From Candidatus Terrybacteria bacterium RIFCSPHIGHO2_01_FULL_48_17 (GTDB lineage: Bacteria; Patescibacteriota; Minisyncoccia; Terrybacterales; 2-01-FULL-58-14): DNA of 64,000 nt. The stretch is from NCBI GenBank assembly GCA_001822835.1, contig MHSS01000015.1, positions 2,113 to 66,112 of the forward strand. The letters are read 5' to 3'. Below the pieces are notes generated by a model. That model was not told the origin of the DNA and made no database searches. It worked only from the letters and a program-made list of their open reading frames with translations. Positions 3,907 through 63,814 of the stretch are shown in pieces; position 1 is the stretch's first letter; each line of letters opens with the position of its first letter. The position numbers and the translations under genes are program-made.

Positions 3907-4908
3907 TTACGTTTCTTTATTTGAAATATTGCGAAGGCGATCAAGTTGATTGGAAAATTTTTCAAGACCGCGCTCGGCATCGTCATACGCGCGTACCGCA
4001 TTACGTAAATGCCCGCCAGCGATCCGAAACCGTTCCCCAAACATGAGAAGCTCCTGGTCAAGGGCTTTTAGGCCCGCAAGAATTTCGCGCGCAGAAGAAG
4101 CAACCTGCATTCCTCGCAAACCAATTAAGATGGTTCGTAAATAAGCGAAAAAAGTGCCGGGGGACATGGGAATAATTGCGCGATCAAAAATCGCATCGGC
4201 AAGATCCGGAAGGGCAATAATCTCTGAATATACGCCTTCGGATGGAATATAGAGCATGGCAAAGTCCGCTGTACCCTCTTGAGGCACAATATATTTTTTC
4301 CTGATTGCCTCTGCGTGTTGCTTCACGACCTGCGTAAATTCCTTTTGCGCATGCTCGCGCGCTTCGGGAGACGAACGCTTCAGACGTTCATACGCTTCCA
4401 TGGGAAATTTTGAGTCGATAGGAATGAGTAATTCACCTGCACGAATCACAAAATCGACCCTTTCCCCGGACCGAAAAGTAAATTGCTTCTGCCAAAGGCC
4501 TGCTTCTTCACCCCCAGGCAGGTGCTGGGCTAAAATATTTTCAAGTAATTTTTCACCCAAAGCTCCACGGACGCGTGGCGGTTGCAAAATCTCCTGAAGT
4601 CGTGCAATATCTTTAGATTGTTCAAGCACTCGGCTTAACGCGGAACGCTGCTCAACCAATTGGTTTGAAACATCACGTATTACATCCTGGGTTGAAGAAT
4701 GCGATCGCTCGGTCATTTGTGCTAAATGCCCAATTCTTCGATCAAGCATCGCAACGGTCTCTGAAATACTTCGGGAAAGTTGTTCAACCTTTCCCTTAAG
4801 CTCTCCGTTCTCACCCTGTTGGCTCCGTCGCTTATCCCAAAGGATAAATGCGGCAACAACTATTGCTACCGCAAGAAAAAAAATAGCTAATGGAAAAACA
4901 AAAGACAT
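3907..4908 (-). CDS. rmuC: DNA recombination protein RmuC
   Basis: Conserved RmuC C-terminal domain. The chosen start, ATG at 4908 (MSFVFPLAIFF...), gives the N-terminal TM helix. The ORF-track TTG extension to 4965 overlaps the upstream gene. Confidence 0.75.
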   Translation of the reverse strand: MSFVFPLAIFFLAVAIVVAAFILWDKRRSQQGENGELKGKVEQLSRSISETVAMLDRRIGHLAQMTERSHSSTQDVIRDVSNQLVEQRSALSRVLEQSKDIARLQEILQPPRVRGALGEKLLENILAQHLPGGEEAGLWQKQFTFRSGERVDFVIRAGELLIPIDSKFPMEAYERLKRSSPEAREHAQKEFTQVVKQHAEAIRKKYIVPQEGTADFAMLYIPSEGVYSEIIALPDLADAIFDRAIIPMSPGTFFAYLRTILIGLRGMQVASSAREILAGLKALDQELLMFGERFRIAGGHLRNAVRAYDDAERGLEKFSNQLDRLRNISNKET

Positions 4909-4909
4909 T

Positions 4910-5125
4910 TTATTGATCAGTTCGTTGAAGACGCGGCAAAAGCTCCTCAAATCCCTGGCGGTCAAACCCTTGGCTCGGCAAAGAAGTTTCTGGCGGTATT
5001 TCCGCTGCCTTCTGAATCGCTTCTCGCGCCTGCAACAAAGACCACGCGATCATGCCCACGGCCAGAATCAGCGCGCCAATTGCGGCAAAAGACCAAATCC
5101 AATAAGGAATACGTTTGGTGTGCAT
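4910..5125 (-). CDS. hypothetical small membrane protein
   Basis: 71 aa with one TM helix. Its stop lies 1 nt before the rmuC start, inside the pilus operon. Confidence 0.4.
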   Translation of the reverse strand: MHTKRIPYWIWSFAAIGALILAVGMIAWSLLQAREAIQKAAEIPPETSLPSQGFDRQGFEELLPRLQRTDQ

Positions 5126-5133
5126 ACGAAATA

Positions 5134-5673
5134 CTACGGCCTTGATGCGCGAAATATCATAAATCCCGAAATGGTAAACTGCGGCAATTCATTCCGCTGT
5201 CCGCTCGATGAAACTCCTGATATGACAATTACGACGGGAAGGAGATCAAATTCGCGAAAGAGAGAAGTGATGCGTTCGCTTTCGGTTTGAGCCGTAATTT
5301 TAAACACCACATTTTCAAAACCAGGAGTGCCGGCTGCCGGATCAGAAAAAGTGATAACGGCATCTTGAAGCATTTGATTGGTTGTTTGTGTAACTTTTTG
5401 TTTTGCCGAATTAAACGATGTGAAATCGAGCACCGGTACGAGATCACGAACTTGTTCCGTATACGGAACAAGTTCTGCGGCATCCTGTTTTAACGATGCC
5501 AATAATCGAATTTGCGCTGTGGCCTCTTCTGTCTGTTGTCTTTTCGTTTGAATAGAAGTGAGTTTTTCCGGTAAGATGTTTCTTGCTGCAAGAATAACAA
5601 GACACGCAAAGAGAATTACTCCAAAACGAAGAGCCAAAAAAACAACTAGCTTGCTTTTGGGAAGTCGCCTCAT
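5134..5673 (-). CDS. PilO-like type IV pilus assembly protein
   Basis: Bitopic: TM, then coiled-coil, then a beta domain. It sits immediately downstream of pilM/pilN. Start placed at ATG 5673 (MRRLPK...); the track start at 5679 is TTG. Confidence 0.5.
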   Translation of the reverse strand: MRRLPKSKLVVFLALRFGVILFACLVILAARNILPEKLTSIQTKRQQTEEATAQIRLLASLKQDAAELVPYTEQVRDLVPVLDFTSFNSAKQKVTQTTNQMLQDAVITFSDPAAGTPGFENVVFKITAQTESERITSLFREFDLLPVVIVISGVSSSGQRNELPQFTISGFMIFRASRP

Positions 5674-5688
5674 AAACAAAACAGTGGC

Positions 5689-20725: not shown

Positions 20726-20774
20726 AGATTATCGTCGCAGCAGCTTACTATGGGGATCCGATCCCCATATTCGA

Positions 20775-22034: not shown

Positions 22035-22091
22035 AAATACTACAAAATACGGATCTGTACGAATATACGAATAGGTTTTAACATATAACGA

Positions 22092-22940: not shown

Positions 22941-24419
22941 CTATCCCCTCTCCCCTGTTTTTGGTTTCATCGTCGGAAACAAAATTATCTCCCGCAAGCT
23001 CGGGGCGTCAGTTAACAACATCACCAAACGGTCAACGCCAATACCAAGACCTGCCGCTGGCGGCATGCCGTATTCCATGGTTTCCAAATATTCTTCGTCC
23101 AAACGTTGCGCTTCTTGGGAGCCGGCTTTGCGCGCTTTCTCTTGTTCTTCAAATCGCCTACGCTGCTCAATAGGATCATTGAGCTCGGAAAACGCGTTGA
23201 CAATTTCCATCCCGCCAACTACGAGCTGAAAACGGTCGGCAACCTCCCCTCCTACGCGTCGGGATCCCTCGCTCTGGCTCGGGACTTTTGCTTTTGCCAA
23301 AGGAGAAAGCTCAAGCGGATGCTCAATAATGAAAGTTGGATTCCATAAGTGTTCAAGGCATCGTTTTTTAAAAATTGCGTCGAGTTGTTCTTCACGCGTG
23401 GGTTGTTCTTGTATGTCGACACCCACCTGCTCCGCCTGTTTTGTGATTTCCGCATATGACGCATTTGCGATATCAAGGCGCGCATATTTTTTTAGTGCCG
23501 CAGCAAAAAGCAGTTTAGTGAATGGTCTCTTAGACACAATCTCCTTTCCACGAAATAAAATAGGTTTACCCCCCTTTGCTTTTTTTACAATGTTTTCAAA
23601 AATGCTTTCGACAAATTTCATAAGACCTTCGGCATCCTGATACGCCCAATAGGCCTCTAAAATAGTAAATTCGGGGTTATGCGTTGCATCCATTCCTTCG
23701 TTCCGGAAAGCTGTCCCGAGCTCAAATATCTTTTCAAACCCACCTACCAACAAACGCTTCAAATAAAGCTCTGGTGCAACACGAAGAAAAAGATCTAAAT
23801 TAAGGGCATTAAGATGGGTTTTGAAAGGTCTTGCCGATGCGCCACCAGGAATCGATTGTAGCATGGGTGTTGCAACTTCCATAAAACCCTTGTTCATAAA
23901 TTCCCGCCTCAACAGCTCAACGATATTTGCGCGCGCTACAAAACGTTGACGTACATCGTCGTTCACTAAAAGATCGAGCGCGCGGTTGCGATACCGCTCT
24001 TCAATATCTTTGAGCCCGTAAAAATGTGTTGGGGGCGGTACAAGCGCTTTTGCTAAAAGCCGACTTTCTTTCACCTCGAGTGTCTCTTCTCCCCTCTGTG
24101 TCTTAAAAGGAACGCCCTTTGTCCATATAAAATCCCCCGTCTCAAGCGTCTCTACGGCCTTGTTAAAGGCCGTCTCTCCCATTACGTCCCTACGAAGGAG
24201 TAGTTGCAGTTTTCCGGAAGCATCCACCACATCCATAAATACCGCGCCGCCATGCCCCCGTGTTGCCATAATTCGCCCAACAATTGAAATACTCTTTTTG
24301 CTCTTGGCTAAGGATAAAAAACGTTTATGAAGACCGCCAATCTCCACGCGCCTAACCGCCTTACCAGGATATGCGGCGTGTTTGCTGCGCAATAAACGAA
24401 GTTCTTCTTTCCGTTCCAT
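22941..24419 (-). CDS. lysS: lysine--tRNA ligase (class II)
   Basis: OB-fold anticodon-binding domain plus class II core (FRNEGMD...). Start chosen at MERKEEL (about 24419, +/-1 nt); the track N-terminal extension overlaps the MMPL gene. Confidence 0.85.
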   Translation of the reverse strand: MERKEELRLLRSKHAAYPGKAVRRVEIGGLHKRFLSLAKSKKSISIVGRIMATRGHGGAVFMDVVDASGKLQLLLRRDVMGETAFNKAVETLETGDFIWTKGVPFKTQRGEETLEVKESRLLAKALVPPPTHFYGLKDIEERYRNRALDLLVNDDVRQRFVARANIVELLRREFMNKGFMEVATPMLQSIPGGASARPFKTHLNALNLDLFLRVAPELYLKRLLVGGFEKIFELGTAFRNEGMDATHNPEFTILEAYWAYQDAEGLMKFVESIFENIVKKAKGGKPILFRGKEIVSKRPFTKLLFAAALKKYARLDIANASYAEITKQAEQVGVDIQEQPTREEQLDAIFKKRCLEHLWNPTFIIEHPLELSPLAKAKVPSQSEGSRRVGGEVADRFQLVVGGMEIVNAFSELNDPIEQRRRFEEQEKARKAGSQEAQRLDEEYLETMEYGMPPAAGLGIGVDRLVMLLTDAPSLREIILFPTMKPKTGERG

Positions 24420-27371: not shown

Positions 27372-28127
27372 TCAAGGCCGTATTATCCGCAGCCGCCTTC
27401 TCCGCCATTCGAATACTTTCTGGTGGTTGCCGGAAAGCAGGATCTTTGGAACTCGCCACATAATCCTTTTGTTTTTGGGATTAGGGAAAAATGCTTCCGG
27501 GCGAGTGTAATGTGGATATTCGCCCTGAACCAGATCGCGCCGTCGCGCGGACGGTCCAAGGCTACCCCGAACCGTACCACGCGCACGCGGTTCTGGTTCG
27601 GGGCGCCAGCCGAAAGAAAACGACTCCTCCTTTAAAGATTCCTTGTTTCCAAGAACTCCCGGCAGCAACCGGGCCACGGCATCAACGACTACCATAGCAG
27701 GAACCTCTCCACCTGTCAGCACATAGGGTCCAATAGAAATTTCTTCATCTGCAATGTACTTTCTCACACGCTCATCAACCCCTTCGTACCTACCGCAGAT
27801 TAATATTAAATGCGACAACGCCGCATAGCGTTTGGCCGTCTTTTGAGTAAATTGTTTCCCGCCTGCAGAGAATAAGACAATTTTTGTCTTCCTTTTTTTC
27901 CGCAATGCTTGTACAGCGCGAAAGATAGGATCGACTTTCATCACCATACCTGCCCCCCCACCATAGGGACGCGCATCAGTGACTCTGTGAACATCGTGAG
28001 CCCAACGGCGCAAATTATGAATGGAAATTGAAAGATGGCGCGCTTTTTGGGCGCGTTTAAGTATAGATTCGGCAAAATATGACCGAAATATGTCTGGGAA
28101 AATGGTAAGAATGTCAACGTAAAGCAT
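27372..28127 (-). CDS. trmD: tRNA (guanine37-N1)-methyltransferase TrmD, carrying a roughly 23-aa GC-rich insertion
   Basis: Start at ATG 28127 (MLYVDILTIFPDIF...). SPOUT-fold motifs are present. The insertion WRPEPEPRARGTVRGSLGPSARRRD lies before the conserved PHYTRPE. Confidence 0.85.
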   Translation of the reverse strand: MLYVDILTIFPDIFRSYFAESILKRAQKARHLSISIHNLRRWAHDVHRVTDARPYGGGAGMVMKVDPIFRAVQALRKKRKTKIVLFSAGGKQFTQKTAKRYAALSHLILICGRYEGVDERVRKYIADEEISIGPYVLTGGEVPAMVVVDAVARLLPGVLGNKESLKEESFSFGWRPEPEPRARGTVRGSLGPSARRRDLVQGEYPHYTRPEAFFPNPKNKRIMWRVPKILLSGNHQKVFEWRRRRLRIIRP

Positions 28128-28211
28128 CGCAAAAATCAATGCATAACCGAGAACCCCCCATTGTCGATTGGAAACGGGGGGTTCGCATCTGTGAGATATC
28201 GAGTGAAACAA

Positions 28212-32860: not shown

Positions 32861-33511
32861 TTAGTTTTGCAAGCTTTTAAGAAAACTTCTCCGATGGATG
32901 GAACACGGACCGAGTTCTTGTAATCGCCGATAATGTAATCTCGTGCCATACCCTTTGTGTATATCAAAGCCGTACTGGGGAAAATGCTGGTGATGCCGTT
33001 CCATAAGCTTATCGCGATGCACCTTTGCAATAATAGAGGCGGCAGCGATAAGCGAAATCTGCTCGTCCCCCTTAATTACCGTACATTGCCGCAACTGGGA
33101 TGGCGCGTAAAGGGAGCCGTCAAGCAATATAATAGAGTTTAGTCCCGACGCAAGGTCGGGATCCCGACTTCTTTTTTGATAGTTTCGATTGGGGCGTCGG
33201 GAGGAATAGGAATTAGGGAACAATTTATGCAAAACGGCGGCAACAGCACGATTAAGAGCCCTTGTAATCCCTTGTTTATCTATGATTTTTGGGCCAACTG
33301 AAGCTACTGCCCATCGGAAACCCTCATTGCTTTTGATTGTGCAGGAGAGGATTTCGCGCTGCCTTGAAGAAAGACGCTTCGAGTCCTTCAAACGTCCTGA
33401 TCCCTGAACCCTCAATCCTGAACCCCGTTTTGCCGCCACTGCCGCAACTGTAACAGGACCGGCAAGCGGCCCACGCCCAGCTTCATCAATACCAACAATC
33501 CACTGCACCAT
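32861..33511 (-). CDS. rnhB: ribonuclease HII, carrying two GC-rich insertions
   Basis: GIDEAGRGPLAGPV and DSKRLS motifs. The insertions (RGSGLRVQGSG; NSYSSRRPNRNYQKRSRDPDLASGLNS) are encoded by palindromic GC-rich DNA. Confidence 0.85.
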   Translation of the reverse strand: MVQWIVGIDEAGRGPLAGPVTVAAVAAKRGSGLRVQGSGRLKDSKRLSSRQREILSCTIKSNEGFRWAVASVGPKIIDKQGITRALNRAVAAVLHKLFPNSYSSRRPNRNYQKRSRDPDLASGLNSIILLDGSLYAPSQLRQCTVIKGDEQISLIAAASIIAKVHRDKLMERHHQHFPQYGFDIHKGYGTRLHYRRLQELGPCSIHRRSFLKSLQN

Positions 33512-36800: not shown

Positions 36801-37091
36801 GATGCGGCAACGGGAAGACAATTACGCATTGGGGGTGTAATCACAAAAATTAAAAAGATCCTCACAAAGAAAGGAGAGCCGATGCTTTTTGTGAATGTCG
36901 AAGATATGTCAGGAACCACTGAAGTCGTTGTTTTCCCGAGAGTTTTAGAAAATTATCCGACTGCCTTTAAAGAGAATGCAATTGTGTTGCTTGACGGTAC
37001 GGTATCAGAACGCAATGGCGAGATGGGGTTTATTTGTGAGAGGGCGGAGGAGATTGTGGAGAAGGCAGAGGAGATAGTGAGAAGGGTATAG
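33882..37091 (+). CDS. dnaE: DNA polymerase III subunit alpha
   Basis: PHP domain (FVHLHVHSHYSFLDG), polymerase core, and a C-terminal OB region. Start chosen at MASRFVHL (33882); the alternative ATG is at 33864. Confidence 0.9.
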   Translation: MASRFVHLHVHSHYSFLDGLAKIDQLVARAKELGMDALAITDHGGLWGAVEFYKKAKAQGIKPIIGAELYVATRSRFDRDPQLDTRRFHLTVLAKNNIGYQNLVKLVTKSQLEGFYFKPRVDKELLRTYHEGLIALSGCLGGEIPRAIESGNMKHANNLLTEYLDIFGRDNFFLELGAHNNIPQQKKLNTKLIELGKQYNVPLVATNDIHYVSADDKDAHEVLLSVQTASRFDDESRLSLKTDDFSLKSAEQMDASFPNMPEVLKESAKIAEQCNVTLPIGAIQLPMFPVPEGYTPDSYLKKLCDEGLTKRYDANYPPQALERLSYELSVIEKTGFASYFLIVQDFVSWAKGQGIVVGPGRGSAAGSFVAYVLGITNIDPLRYELLFERFLNPARVSMPDIDLDFADWRRDEVIQYLRQKYGDEHVAQIGTFGTMAARAVVRDAGRSLGFPYSFCDRVAKLIPFGMTLEQALKASQELSQAYENEADVARLVDSGRKLEGVARHISTHACGVVISKEPLTKLVPLQHPSQSEEHVISQYEMHSIEDLGLLKIDLLGLRNLSIIEETIGRIKNTYREEVDIERLPLDDAKTFELLRTADTTGVFQLEGGGMRRYLKELVPTELEDIIAMISLYRPGPMEFIPSFIKRKHGKEKVEYLDHALESILKKTHGIAVYQEQLMEIARQLAGFSLAEADMLRKAVGKKIKSLLNEQHEKLVAGMMRNKITKNTAEKIWEWIIPFARYGFNRSHGACYAMIAYQTAWLKAHYPYEFMASLLNREYGMGTDRVAVLIQEARAHEIKILPPDVNASREGFTVVYKETKNPGAIRFGLTAIKNLGHNVVTKIITERDTNGAYTSLENFIKRIAGPEFTKKALESLTYAGALDQFAERKAILESTDQILSFGKESHRNAQSGQGSLFDETSTGATLRLKETKPASKQERLRWEKDHLGLWVSEHPLRSYERLLATITKPIEIMRDAATGRQLRIGGVITKIKKILTKKGEPMLFVNVEDMSGTTEVVVFPRVLENYPTAFKENAIVLLDGTVSERNGEMGFICERAEEIVEKAEEIVRRV

Positions 37092-37317
37092 GGCGAGCGC
37101 AACGGCAGGCCTGCTCGCGTCTGCAAGGGATCCTTCCGTTCCTTAAGGCCGCTCGCAGCCCCGCCGCTTGCGCTCTTATGTTACCCTCAGCCTCTTTATA
37201 AAGATGGATGAGAAAAGAGGTAAGAAAGGAAGCCCATGATACGGGCTCTTATATTTTTGACAGAATAATACTAGCAAAGGTATTAGAGAACATTGAAAAG
37301 GAAAAAGGAGGATGGAT

Positions 37318-37545
37318 ATGTATGACTTAATGGGTTTTCCTGAGGAAAATCTACAGCACTCCAGGATGCGGTTTAAACCAAATCCTGAACCCGTCGAAAC
37401 AACTCCCTCCTGTGATCGAGGATCCTGTTCGGGAAGGGGTTATAATTTTTGTTCGGAACATAACACACATCTCTGCAACGGACATTTTGGCTGGCACGTA
37501 AGGATGTTCCACAAAGCGCCCGAATCAGTTCGAGTGCATGGTTAG
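37318..37545 (+). CDS. hypothetical small Cys/His-rich protein (possible zinc ribbon)
   Basis: Strong SD AAAGGAGGA 6 nt before ATG 37318. Motifs CxxxxC...CxxxxxxC...H. It has its own terminator. Confidence 0.4.
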   Translation: MYDLMGFPEENLQHSRMRFKPNPEPVETTPSCDRGSCSGRGYNFCSEHNTHLCNGHFGWHVRMFHKAPESVRVHG

Positions 37546-39739: not shown

Positions 39740-40705
39740 ATGGCATCCAGGAAAACCCGCGTCAAATCGCCCGTCATTGTCATTGTAGGCCCTACCGCTT
39801 CCGGAAAAACGGACCTTGCACATAAACTCGCGAAAACACTGGGCGGCGATATCATTACTGCTGATTCGCGCCAGGTATACAAAGAAATGAATATTGGGAC
39901 GGCAAAGCCGCATACAACAGGGACCAGCAATCGGGGTTCAGGGATCAGAAAATGCCCGGAGATGCGGGGTGTGCAACATTATGGAATTGATCTTGTAAAA
40001 CCCAATCAATATTTTTCCGTCCAACAATGGAGAAAAATAGCTCTTCGCGCCATATCTGAAATTCAAAAACAGGGTCGAGTCCCGATTGTTGAAGGCGGGA
40101 CATGGCAATGGGTTTATGCATTGTTGTATAACTACACGATCCCAAAAGTACCTCCCCAAAAAGCGTTTCGCAAAAAACTGGAGGCGGAAATCAAAAAACG
40201 AGGCACTGGATATTTGATAAAAAAGGTGCTGCGAAGCGATCCTGATGCGACCGCATTTTTAGATCTAAAAAACCCTCGCCGTCTTATCCGGGCGCTTGAG
40301 GTAATGAAAGAGACAGGTAAGCCCTTTTCCCGACTACGCAAAACAGATGCTCCCCTTTTTAAAATACTAATTCTTGGATTAAATCCCGCTCCTCCCGCAC
40401 TAAAAAAGCGTCTCGCAAAACGTCTTGAGCAACAGTTCGCAGAAGGACTTAAACGTGAGGCAAGAAATCTCATTAGTAAATACGGTCGCAAGACCCCGGG
40501 AATGTCGGGTATTGGCTATCGTGAATGGCAACCATACTTTGAGGGTACAATAACGATCGATGAGGTGCGCGCCAATATCTTGCGCAATACGATAAAGCTT
40601 GCAAAAGTGCAACAACGAATGTTTCGAAAAATCAAAAAGGTAAAGTGGATACATGCTTACCAAGATGCAAAACGGGTCGTCACCCAAAAATTTGCAAGAT
40701 TATAA
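39740..40705 (+). CDS. miaA: tRNA dimethylallyltransferase MiaA, carrying a GC-rich insertion
   Basis: P-loop GPTASGKT and a DSRQVYKEMNIGTAKP motif. The insertion TTGTSNRGSGIRKCPEMRGV is encoded by cggggttcagggatcag. Confidence 0.8.
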   Translation: MASRKTRVKSPVIVIVGPTASGKTDLAHKLAKTLGGDIITADSRQVYKEMNIGTAKPHTTGTSNRGSGIRKCPEMRGVQHYGIDLVKPNQYFSVQQWRKIALRAISEIQKQGRVPIVEGGTWQWVYALLYNYTIPKVPPQKAFRKKLEAEIKKRGTGYLIKKVLRSDPDATAFLDLKNPRRLIRALEVMKETGKPFSRLRKTDAPLFKILILGLNPAPPALKKRLAKRLEQQFAEGLKREARNLISKYGRKTPGMSGIGYREWQPYFEGTITIDEVRANILRNTIKLAKVQQRMFRKIKKVKWIHAYQDAKRVVTQKFARL

Positions 40706-55028: not shown

Positions 55029-55300
55029 CCTCATGGTAGCCCCTCGTCGCTACGTTCTCCCTCGCGTAACTCGGGACTTCCCCTTCGCTACGCTCAGGAC
55101 TTCGCTACGCTCAGCTTCGGTCGCTCGGGACGCTGAATTTGGCAACCGCGCTACGCGCGGGATTGGTGCCCCCTCGTCACTACGTTCCTCGGGACATTCA
55201 ATTCGGCAGCCCCTCGACAAACTCGGGACACTGAAATTTTCAGGTAGCCCCTCGCTTCGCTCGGGACACTCAAAATTGCAGCCACGCTTCGCATGGGCAA
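55029..55300. repeat. degenerate tandem direct repeats (about 38-41-bp units; core gcccctcg...ctcgggacact(g/c)aaa(a/t)tt)
   Basis: gcccctcg recurs at 55035, 55164, 55205 and 55243. ctcgggac recurs at 55066, 55119, 55184, 55218 and 55256. Confidence 0.6.
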
Positions 55301-61712: not shown

Positions 61713-61755
61713 CTCAAAAACCCCGTTCACCTTGCTGCGCTAAGCCCCAGTACTA

Positions 61756-61868
61756 CGAAATACGAATCGGTACGAATATACGAATACCTTATTGTTTCCG
61801 TTTTGTTCCTCATTCGTATATTCGTAAAATGTTCGTACTTCGTAGTATTCTTTGTACTTCGTAGTGTG
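61756..61868. repeat. imperfect roughly 45-bp inverted repeat built from TTCGTA/TACGAA iterons, between a pilin gene's stop and the pilin operon start
   Basis: Left arm ctacgaaatacgaatcggtacgaatatacgaata, a loop, then right arm cattcgtatattcgtaaaatgttcgtacttcgtag... Confidence 0.6.
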
Positions 61869-63001: not shown

Positions 63002-63814
63002 TTAGTTGCTAAAAAGGAAAAAGGCAAGAAGATTACGGAGCCATATTTCGGGGACAAAGTACATCACAACCGGCGGGATGATAAGAAAAGGGCCGAAGGG
63101 AATCGTTTGTTTAAGCGTTTTGGCACGCAGCATCACCAGCGCGAGCCCAACGAACGCACCTAATATAAACGAAAACGCAAGAGAAAAAAGAATCAAGGGA
63201 TACCCCACAAGCGCCCCAAGCGCCACGGCAAGCTTCACATCCCCCCATCCCATCCATGCGCCGCGCGATACCATGGCAAATACGGCCAAAAATACGACCG
63301 CAAGCAAAATACCAAGGCCGGCTTGAGAAAACGCCGGAGGCAATAATCTTTGCTCAATTACGTCAAATGCGCGCAGTGCCACAAGACCCGTAGCTCCCAC
63401 TACTGCCGTAATCCATGCGCTATCGGGAATAATATAAAAACGAAAATCGGCAAAAAATGCGAGTGCCAAACCAGAAAATGATATGAGAACAAAAAATAAT
63501 AGTGTAAACTCTCCAGCTCCTGATGAATCACTAATTATTTGCCACGCAGAAAAACCAAATAATAACCCAAGACCTAATTCTTCAAAAAGATGACGTTGGG
63601 GAATTAAGACACGGCATTGGCTGCATTTTCCCAAAAGCCAAAGCCATGAAAAAATGGGAACAAGTTCCCACCATAAAAGCTTTTTCCCGCATGCGGGGCA
63701 ATGGGAACGACCAGTAAGCGGGCCGTGATTCACGGCCCGCTCCGAAACGACGTCAAGAAAGCTTGCTATGGCTGCTCCATACACAAAAGCGAATAACGAA
63801 ACGAGTTCCTGCAT
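63002..63814 (-). CDS. pilD: prepilin peptidase (A24 family)
   Basis: N-terminal CPACGKKL...CSQCRV zinc motif, a polytopic membrane domain, and a catalytic Asp motif MGWGDVKL. Confidence 0.85.
   Translation of the reverse strand: MQELVSLFAFVYGAAIASFLDVVSERAVNHGPLTGRSHCPACGKKLLWWELVPIFSWLWLLGKCSQCRVLIPQRHLFEELGLGLLFGFSAWQIISDSSGAGEFTLLFFVLISFSGLALAFFADFRFYIIPDSAWITAVVGATGLVALRAFDVIEQRLLPPAFSQAGLGILLAVVFLAVFAMVSRGAWMGWGDVKLAVALGALVGYPLILFSLAFSFILGAFVGLALVMLRAKTLKQTIPFGPFLIIPPVVMYFVPEIWLRNLLAFFLFSN

Follow-up and report, generated by a model that had tools for sequence, protein, structure and literature searches.

The present analysis concerns a 64-kb stretch of DNA (the window) from a Parcubacteria-type bacterium of the Patescibacteria, or candidate phyla radiation (CPR), in which the housekeeping genes trmD, rnhB, miaA and lysS carry in-frame inserts that encode short extra peptide segments. 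An earlier note on this DNA had described such segments in the first three genes; the one in lysS was absent from it. The three gene assignments agree with Pfam, all the sequences quoted in the note are found at their places in the window, and the extra segments are genuine as judged against solved structures of TrmD, RnhB and MiaA and against Parcubacteria orthologues (27–50 sequences per protein, taken from syntenic loci). The neighbours of trmD, rnhB and miaA are ordinary housekeeping genes by Pfam, and the window, with a GC content of 47%, also encodes parts of a type IV pilus. No species representative in the genome collection has a DnaE more than 56% identical to that of the window, and at least four public metagenome assemblies contain the population at 100% identity or close to it. 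Data sets in which the population occurs are JGI 3300002502 and, in ENA, ERZ4903072, ERZ28563625 and ERZ27254851. Among four other assemblies of the population, three are 100% identical to the window and one (L165) is 99.975% identical, with 3 mismatches and 1 gap. Genome coverage is this one window, to which the copy counts given below refer.

The boundaries of the inserts were fixed by alignment to solved structures (8byh for TrmD, E. coli RnhB, MiaA, and E. coli LysU for the lysyl-tRNA synthetase LysRS), and the features so delimited are collected in Table 1. Relative to these structures the proteins are longer by 27 residues in TrmD, by 5 and about 24 residues at two sites in RnhB, by 13 residues in MiaA (after IGTAK) and by 9 residues in LysRS. 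At each of these gaps the frame stays open past the insert and on into the C-terminal part of the protein, which is conserved, and among the Parcubacteria orthologues the insert sites are hypervariable positions. The fold z-scores given below compare folding with that of shuffled sequences (dinucleotide shuffles for the trmD hairpin).

Table 1. Inserts, host genes and related repeat array in the window
Feature	Coordinates	Strand	Content
trmD in-frame insert	27522–27608	-	87 nt, 29 codons: WRPEPEPRARGTVRGSLGPSARRRDLVQG; boundaries from alignment to a Protein Data Bank structure
trmD host gene	27372–28130	-	Pfam PF01746; insert in the interdomain linker just before EYPHYTRP
rnhB host gene	32861–33511	-	Identified by Pfam
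rnhB site 1	33397–33427	-	Family A, two tandem non-palindromic copies CGGGGTTCAGG-ATTGA-GGGTTCAGGGATCAG, encoding RGSGLRVQGSG
rnhB site 2	33141–33170	-	Family B; + strand GTCCCGAC-GCAAG-GTCGGGA/TCCCGAC (arm, loop, arm, arm); encodes SRDPDLASGL
miaA host gene	39740–40705	+	Identified by Pfam
miaA family A copy	39932–39948	+	CGGGGTTCAGGGATCAG, within the 13-residue insert 39911–39949
lysS insert	23257–23288	-	Family B copy; 9 residues KVPSQSEGS, codons 23262–23288; opposite coding orientation to rnhB site 2
Intergenic degenerate repeat array	55030–55300	+	Core CTCGGGAC; adjoins tRNA-Met

The inserts and their DNA

The insert in trmD is the most conspicuous of the set. Residues 174–202 of TrmD (29 residues) stand opposite 2 residues of 8byh directly before the motif EYPHYTRP, and the DNA that encodes them has a GC content of 71%, against 48% in the rest of the gene. 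This DNA is a single long imperfect palindrome, with the paired positions extending over 27521–27605 and comprising 37–41 bp, so that the edges of the insert and those of the hairpin agree within 3 nt. Folded as sense RNA the hairpin has a free energy of -67.1 kcal/mol (z -6.09), folded as antisense RNA one of -55.3 kcal/mol, and folded as DNA it has a z-score of -2.9; with GC content corrected for, no other 100 nt of the 64 kb is as structured. Within the insert, nested copies of one 9-mer are present in both orientations (CCCCGAACC, AGAACC, GGTTCGGGG, CCTTGGACC and GGTTCAGGG). At the protein level, the insert, with 7 Arg among its 29 residues, is predicted to be translated as an Arg/Gly/Pro-rich disordered stretch of the linker before the catalytic EYPHYTRP motif. 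In an AlphaFold 2 model built on 38 homologues, residues 163–211 have predicted local distance difference test values below 50 and are without secondary structure, a modelling result that fits a flexible linker. The length of this linker ranges from 0 to about 45 residues among Parcubacteria orthologues.

It is noted that in another assembly of the population, which is otherwise 100% identical to the window, a scaffold gap of 10 N and 33 aberrant bases are located at the edge of the trmD hairpin (L164:3720-3762 of ANAN16-1 scaffold_3173, corresponding to positions 27609–27625 of the window). We treat the gap as an assembly artefact and not as a strain variant, and it may be that the hairpin breaks assemblies or that the gap conceals strain variation.

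The other inserts fall into two small repeat families. In family A, the miaA sequence CGGGGTTCAGGGATCAG matches both of the tandem copies at rnhB site 1, with an alignment score of 31 against a null of 12.9 +/- 2.1. The 17-mer common to the two genes is exact over 15–17 nt, as the earlier note had it, and it is not palindromic; its translation is RGSGIR in miaA and, in another frame, VQGSG in the second rnhB copy. With at most 3 mismatches allowed, the window holds 3 matches to family A where 0.09 are expected. Family B consists of about 30 nt common to rnhB site 2 and lysS, aligned as GTCGGGATCC--CGACCTTGCGTCGGGACT with GTCGGGATCCCTCGCTCTGGC-TCGGGACT, with a score of 27 against a null of 12.6 +/- 1.95, where none of 300 shuffles scored above 20. 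Here the two genes read opposite strands, giving SRDPDLASGL in rnhB and KVPSQSEGSRR in lysS. Since the links within families A and B were found after inspecting the inserts, the p-values attached to them are conditional on that choice. The core CTCGGGAC of the intergenic array occurs 7 times in the window against 0.95 expected, and the array is weakly linked to the lysS insert (score 28, null 16.4 +/- 2.4, p about 0.007); judged from this sequence likeness, the array may serve family B as a non-coding reservoir.

These differences of frame and strand, together with the synonymous-site conservation of the trmD insert described below, bear out the view that the repeats are elements of DNA and not conserved peptides. 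No repeated peptide cassette of at least 7 residues was found among the proteins of the window. By contrast, the claim that every site is palindromic with 65–70% GC stands only in part. It holds for trmD and, at rnhB site 2, for the 29-nt core, which is GC-rich and contains the perfect palindrome GTCGGGATCCCGAC at 33155–33168, correctly noted before; it fails for the rnhB site 2 insert taken as a whole (49% GC), for rnhB site 1 (55% GC) and for miaA (54% GC). Folding is strong in trmD alone, weak at rnhB site 2 (z -2.0), not significant in lysS (z -1.3) and absent at rnhB site 1 (z +0.3) and in miaA (z -1.2). The position of rnhB site 2 holds unrelated palindromes in many orthologues. Note also that in one Wildermuthbacteria genome (L045:19671-20595) the miaA orthologue appears as two tblastn segments in different frames, split exactly at the site of the miaA insert, which could reflect a frameshift, a sequencing error or a programmed event.

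The further claim, that all sites have the same cores, did not survive. Local alignments of the trmD insert with the other inserts, with the hairpin after serS and with the hairpin at the end of dnaE are at chance (p 0.05–0.9), and one family with common cores is thus rejected. The proposed core GGTTCAGG is present 7 times against 1.2 expected, two of the copies being a local tandem duplication, and its place among 24,000 8-mers is no higher than about 5th to 8th, a ranking that likewise speaks against the single family; the apparent over-representation of ATGACGTCAT is a counting artefact. From these comparisons of sequence, no relation of the trmD insert to the inserts in rnhB, miaA and lysS is demonstrable.

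Comparison with Parcubacteria relatives

Among the protein relatives of TrmD, one (P0001) is 98% identical and another (P0011) 57% identical. A homologous insert of equal length is carried by a TrmD that is about 69% identical, encoded on the metagenome contig L081, and this one contig is the closest relative that informs on trmD. DNA identity is 82.8% (77/93) in the insert and 65% elsewhere in the gene, and the third codon positions are identical at 23/31 (74%) inside the insert and at 84/216 (about 40%) outside it (Fisher p 3e-4). The insert is therefore conserved in excess at the DNA level, yet with no clear evidence of a selected structure, as discussed below. In four genes of a sister clade (P0002, P0003, P0006 and P0008) the trmD DNA is 83% identical and the linker inserts are wholly unrelated, with a hairpin of their own in 3 of the 4, which makes the TrmD linker a site of fast turnover of hairpin-bearing DNA. 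Presence in relatives is thus mixed: L081 carries the same trmD insert, and other relatives have unrelated inserts or none. As a side observation, the trmD genes of P0002 and P0006 (loci L158 and L159) are near-identical over the first approximately 360 nt and then about 85% identical with unrelated linker inserts, a pattern pointing to a mosaic from recombination or to an assembly chimera.

The same habit is found on a large scale when eight genes are compared across up to 81 Parcubacteria loci gathered by synteny around dnaE. We defined a lineage-specific insert as one of at least 5 residues in alignment columns with an occupancy below 0.3, and took as controls 426 length-matched conserved segments of the same genes. 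A z-score of the minimum free energy below -2 is found in 44 of the 142 lineage-specific inserts (31%) and in 9.2% of the controls (Mann-Whitney p 2e-7); after related copies are collapsed, 37 of 119 clusters, from 6 genes and 26 genomes, fold in this way (Fisher p 1.7e-8). Moreover, 1175 long open reading frames (ORFs; 1.29 Mb) contain 173, 97, 41 and 21 perfect hairpins at minimum stem lengths of 9, 10, 12 and 14 bp, against 54, 16, 1.4 and 0.1 in codon shuffles, where a few of the hairpins counted as intragenic may be terminators because the ORFs were taken from stop to stop. The corresponding numbers in an E. coli control (172 kb of ORFs) are 8, 2, 1 and 0, against 4.9, 1.2, 0.05 and 0. 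In rnhB and thrS of relatives the perfect stems reach 17–23 bp.

In single genomes the inserts recur as identical palindromes of 23–25 nt. In the Staskawiczbacteria genome of L026, GGTGGGGTGTCCGACACCCCACC is inserted in rpsP, rnhB and thrS, and in a 4-kb metagenome contig (L119:214-4021), GGGACAGATTTGAAATCTGTCCC is present five times, three of them deep in ORFs and in two frames, being read as RDRFEICP in trmD and twice as GTDFKSVP in another gene. Across genomes, a hairpin of the form CCCGCC-GAAGC..GCGAAG-GCGGG is found in both orientations, its hosts in different genomes being rnhB, thrS and a third ORF. In the rnhB gene of L012 a whole hairpin has been gained as a clean insertion of 42 nt relative to L008 and L016.

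Origin of the inserts

We consider that the extra segments are DNA-level insertions, that is, short self-complementary or repeated DNA that was dispersed in the manner of repetitive extragenic palindromic (REP) sequences, Rickettsia palindromic elements (RPE) or MITEs (miniature inverted-repeat transposable elements) and that then underwent local duplication and decay; we give this reading a probability of roughly one half. In the proposed pathway, short hairpin-forming DNA would be copied to new sites as such non-autonomous repeats are, presumably via single-stranded hairpin intermediates and by a trans-acting enzyme that is not encoded in the window. Some of the copies would land in frame in surface loops or linkers of housekeeping enzymes and be translated through, the resulting peptides being presumably neutral. 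The elements would persist because only the copies that keep the frame in tolerant, disordered loops survive, and tandem or inverted duplication would make them grow or decay in place, which may be illustrated by the tandem at rnhB site 1 and by the GGTTCRGGG/CCCYGAACC arms nested in trmD. On this pathway the trmD copy may once have been part of a multi-copy family.

Extending this proposal, CPR (Parcubacteria) genomes would hold an undescribed class of palindromes of 20–50 nt (up to about 90 nt), in genome-specific families, located in frame in the loops of essential genes, with arms that evolve in concert and accounting for about one third of the lineage-specific insertions into conserved proteins; the trmD, rnhB/lysS and rnhB/miaA elements would then be older, partly decayed members. 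We put this wider proposal forward tentatively, at somewhat less than even odds. If it is true, much of the protein length variation in the phylum would have been written by a DNA-level process and not by selection on peptides.

Several observations weigh against dispersal. A second copy of the trmD element is absent from the window and from 1.6 Mb of relatives, save for the L081 orthologue, and families A and B have only 2–3 copies each. A blind window-wide nhmmer search with each insert gave E values of 0.15–5 only and did not detect the two families, so that the links within them rest on comparisons limited to the insert segments. No direct repeat of the kind left by target-site duplication flanks the trmD insert (TTCGGCTGG on one side and AATATCC on the other) or the 42-nt insertion of L012, and no Y1_Tnp, RAYT-like (REP-associated tyrosine transposase) or other transposase domain was found by Pfam in the approximately 60 ORFs of the window. 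In these ORFs the perfect hairpins number 4 against 1.2 expected, two of the four being probably non-coding. The loci compared are related, so that the insert events are not fully independent though they were collapsed into clusters. Finally, P0011 retains a part of the TrmD insert peptide (GWRPEP..GTVQGE) and L081 retains 77% of the insert residues, which may reflect a protein-level constraint on the TrmD insert.

A local mutational origin that needs no mobility could also be envisaged. In this scenario template switching (snap-back synthesis, or inverted duplication of neighbouring codons) followed by arm-to-arm correction makes the hairpins, slippage makes the tandems, and the likeness between genes is convergent or due to chance. 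The trmD insert itself gives reasons to consider it: it has the 9-mer copies nested in both orientations, the outer 3' arm of the hairpin overlaps conserved Gly-Glu codons, and RPEP is the reverse-complement reading of TVQGE, a pair that recurs in the shorter RPEP..TVQGE of P0011. In relatives, the L012 and L016 copies of a common hairpin differ by 2 compensated arm changes and 0 uncompensated ones, loops are flipped between genomes in otherwise identical hairpins, and 12 of 22 strong hairpins have one arm that is for the most part beyond the low-occupancy columns. However, identical palindromes in at least 3 unrelated genes of one genome, as in L026 and L119, are not makeable locally, both arms were gained together in L012, and rnhB site 2 and lysS, as well as rnhB site 1 and miaA, have non-trivial DNA in common. 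We regard a purely local origin as unlikely, though as the alternative to be taken most seriously.

It could be argued instead that the trmD hairpin is a selected structure of the mRNA, for example an RNase III site, a site of ribosome pausing at the boundary of the knotted-fold domain or a regulator internal to the operon, with the peptide as a by-product. The sense strand folds better than the antisense strand (by the energies given above, with 5 G.U pairs), synonymous sites are conserved in the insert, and a gene for RNase III lies 3.5 kb from the hairpin. Relative to L081, changes are found at 10 of 82 paired and 9 of 28 unpaired positions (p 0.02), and wobble preserves 5 of the 10 changed pairs. 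However, the fold of the aligned 110-nt segment has 41 pairs, of which 31 do not change, 5 stay paired through one-sided wobble changes and 5 are broken, with 0 compensatory double changes, so that half of the 10 changed pairs are lost. Moreover, the hairpin inserts across the phylum are without sense-strand bias (G.U pairs 22/533 in the sense and 50/558 in the antisense orientation), the close relatives have unrelated trmD inserts or none, the terminator scan of 27521–27608 gave no terminator-like tail (AAUAUCCACAU comes after the hairpin), and an Rfam search of the window at the gathering score gave only three tRNAs and no match at the hairpin. We regard a selected mRNA structure as improbable.

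A last alternative is ordinary protein-level evolution of the loops, in which an Arg-rich linker is selected for tRNA binding, codons for Arg, Gly, Pro and Ala account for the GC content, and hairpin and k-mers alike are incidental. It has in its favour the abundance of Arg in a linker that contacts tRNA in solved TrmD complexes, the partial retention of the peptide in P0011 and L081 noted above and the lack of window-wide significance of the shared 15-mer (about 3.8 exact 15-mer pairs are calculated to be expected in 64 kb; nhmmer E 0.15). Against it, a z-score of -6.1 against dinucleotide shuffles does not come from composition alone, the excess conservation of third positions is unexplained by protein selection, near-identical trmD genes carry unrelated sequences at the same site, and one stretch of DNA is translated in differing frames or from either strand across genes. 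We regard this alternative, too, as improbable.

Returning to the insertion of dispersed hairpin DNA, the presence of hairpin or repeat DNA in frame in the loops of essential enzymes, with the same habit on a large scale in relatives, resembles RPE in a new lineage and in a much smaller format. RPE, reportedly described by Ogata et al. 2000, come in families whose recognisably similar copies number in the tens in each genome. The likeness, which the earlier note had drawn, holds in that the elements, like RPE as described, are palindromic (strongly in trmD, weakly at rnhB site 2), translated, located in frame in tolerant surface regions of proteins encoded by essential genes of a reduced genome, and repeated at the DNA level. 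It does not hold for the unit, which is 17–87 nt here (87 in trmD, about 30 in family B and 17 in family A) against 100–150 bp, nor for the existence of a single family: in the 64 kb there is 1 copy of the trmD type, 3 copies of family A in 2 genes, and family B in 2 genes plus the weakly similar intergenic array. For RPE a length of about 105–146 bp has been given (PMC3184786). In addition, 2 of the 4 sites first described here are not palindromic, and the lineage, Patescibacteria, is unrelated to Rickettsia.

The elements also resemble the REP sequences and bacterial interspersed mosaic elements (BIME) that go with RAYT, a Y1 HUH enzyme, in being GC-rich imperfect palindromes of 20–40 nt, in genome-specific families and both orientations, and in having terminator-like stems such as CCCGCC..GGCGGG in relatives. 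They differ in that REP sequences are extragenic by definition, whereas all the copies here are in ORFs except the 55030–55300 array, and in that no RAYT gene was found in the window. In MITEs a target-site duplication lies outside the terminal inverted repeats; the trmD insert has no such duplication. The Neisseria DNA uptake sequence (DUS), the Haemophilus uptake signal sequence (USS) and the cyanobacterial highly iterated palindrome HIP1 are genome-specific motifs of 8–12 nt that occur within genes, where the region tolerates them, and favour certain frames. With five copies in 4 kb, L119 reaches a comparable density, and the window has type IV pilus parts, but such motifs arise mostly by substitution and not by insertion, and the window holds no dense motif. 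Fungal mitochondria have comparable inverted repeats in their GC-cluster and double-hairpin elements. Coding palindromes have been described in mitochondrial genes of Nematomorpha (PMC6649704). The likeness there lies in perfect or near-perfect inverted repeats in translated genes with arms that evolve in concert, as in L012 and L016; the difference is that those are organellar, with both arms encoding conserved protein regions, while here the extra material is in variable loops.

Until now, in-frame "selfish" palindromes were a peculiarity seen in Rickettsia, in a few other symbionts and in some mitochondria, and our literature searches gave no description of in-frame palindromic repeats for CPR, Patescibacteria or Parcubacteria. 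Compared with the known cases, the elements here are much shorter, form genome-specific families and have as hosts genes for tRNA modification, replication and aminoacyl-tRNA synthetases. If the proposal is true in CPR, the tolerance of hairpin DNA in essential genes would be a recurrent trait of small, repair-poor genomes and would provide a mechanistic source for many unexplained insertions in CPR proteins. It would also be expected that annotators and structure predictors should take caution not to treat such loops as conserved functional peptides, and that the elements could serve as natural markers for strain typing and as a handle on the hairpin-processing enzymes that CPR bacteria have or lack.

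Other hairpins and repeats in the window

The intergenic copies of a GGGGATC palindrome that had been placed at 20751 and 37092 are real hairpins, and they are unrelated in sequence to that of trmD. The first (20749–20769) begins 6 nt past the stop codon of serS. The second (37084–37186) is a GC-rich hairpin of about 100 nt with -52 kcal/mol and a z-score of -3.85, which overlaps the stop codon of dnaE; before it, the C-terminal tail of DnaE closes with 2.5 tandem copies of a 21-nt repeat (37034–37085), and an ORF of 75 residues rich in Cys and His (37318–37545) comes after it.

Zero-loop palindromes show no general excess in the window. A perfect palindrome of 28 nt (GAACTTGTTCCGTATACGGAACAAGTTC, 5448–5475, z -6.0 as RNA) lies in the ORF 5134–5679(-), which has no Pfam match and adjoins a PilM-like gene. 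A hairpin with a 12-bp perfect stem (63717–63741, z -4.0) lies in the prepilin peptidase gene 63002–63814(-), in the segment that encodes ERAVNHGPLTGRS. The palindromic 8-mer AAGGCCTT is present at 477, 1231, 20408, 28369, 31218, 45886 and 56075, that is, 7 times against 1.65 expected, a number reached in 0 of 100 shuffles. Moreover, an intergenic repeat of 36 nt, rich in TACGAATA, is found at 22038–22073 and 61751–61786 with 92% identity and may be a common regulatory or promoter-region element; only one 100-nt stretch of the window is more structured than positions 61751–61850.

Finally, we note that the window contains a gene of the RmuC family at 3907–4965(-). In rmuC mutants of E. coli, short inverted repeats undergo inversion more often, and by analogy the RmuC-family gene could be relevant to the handling of palindromes in this genome.

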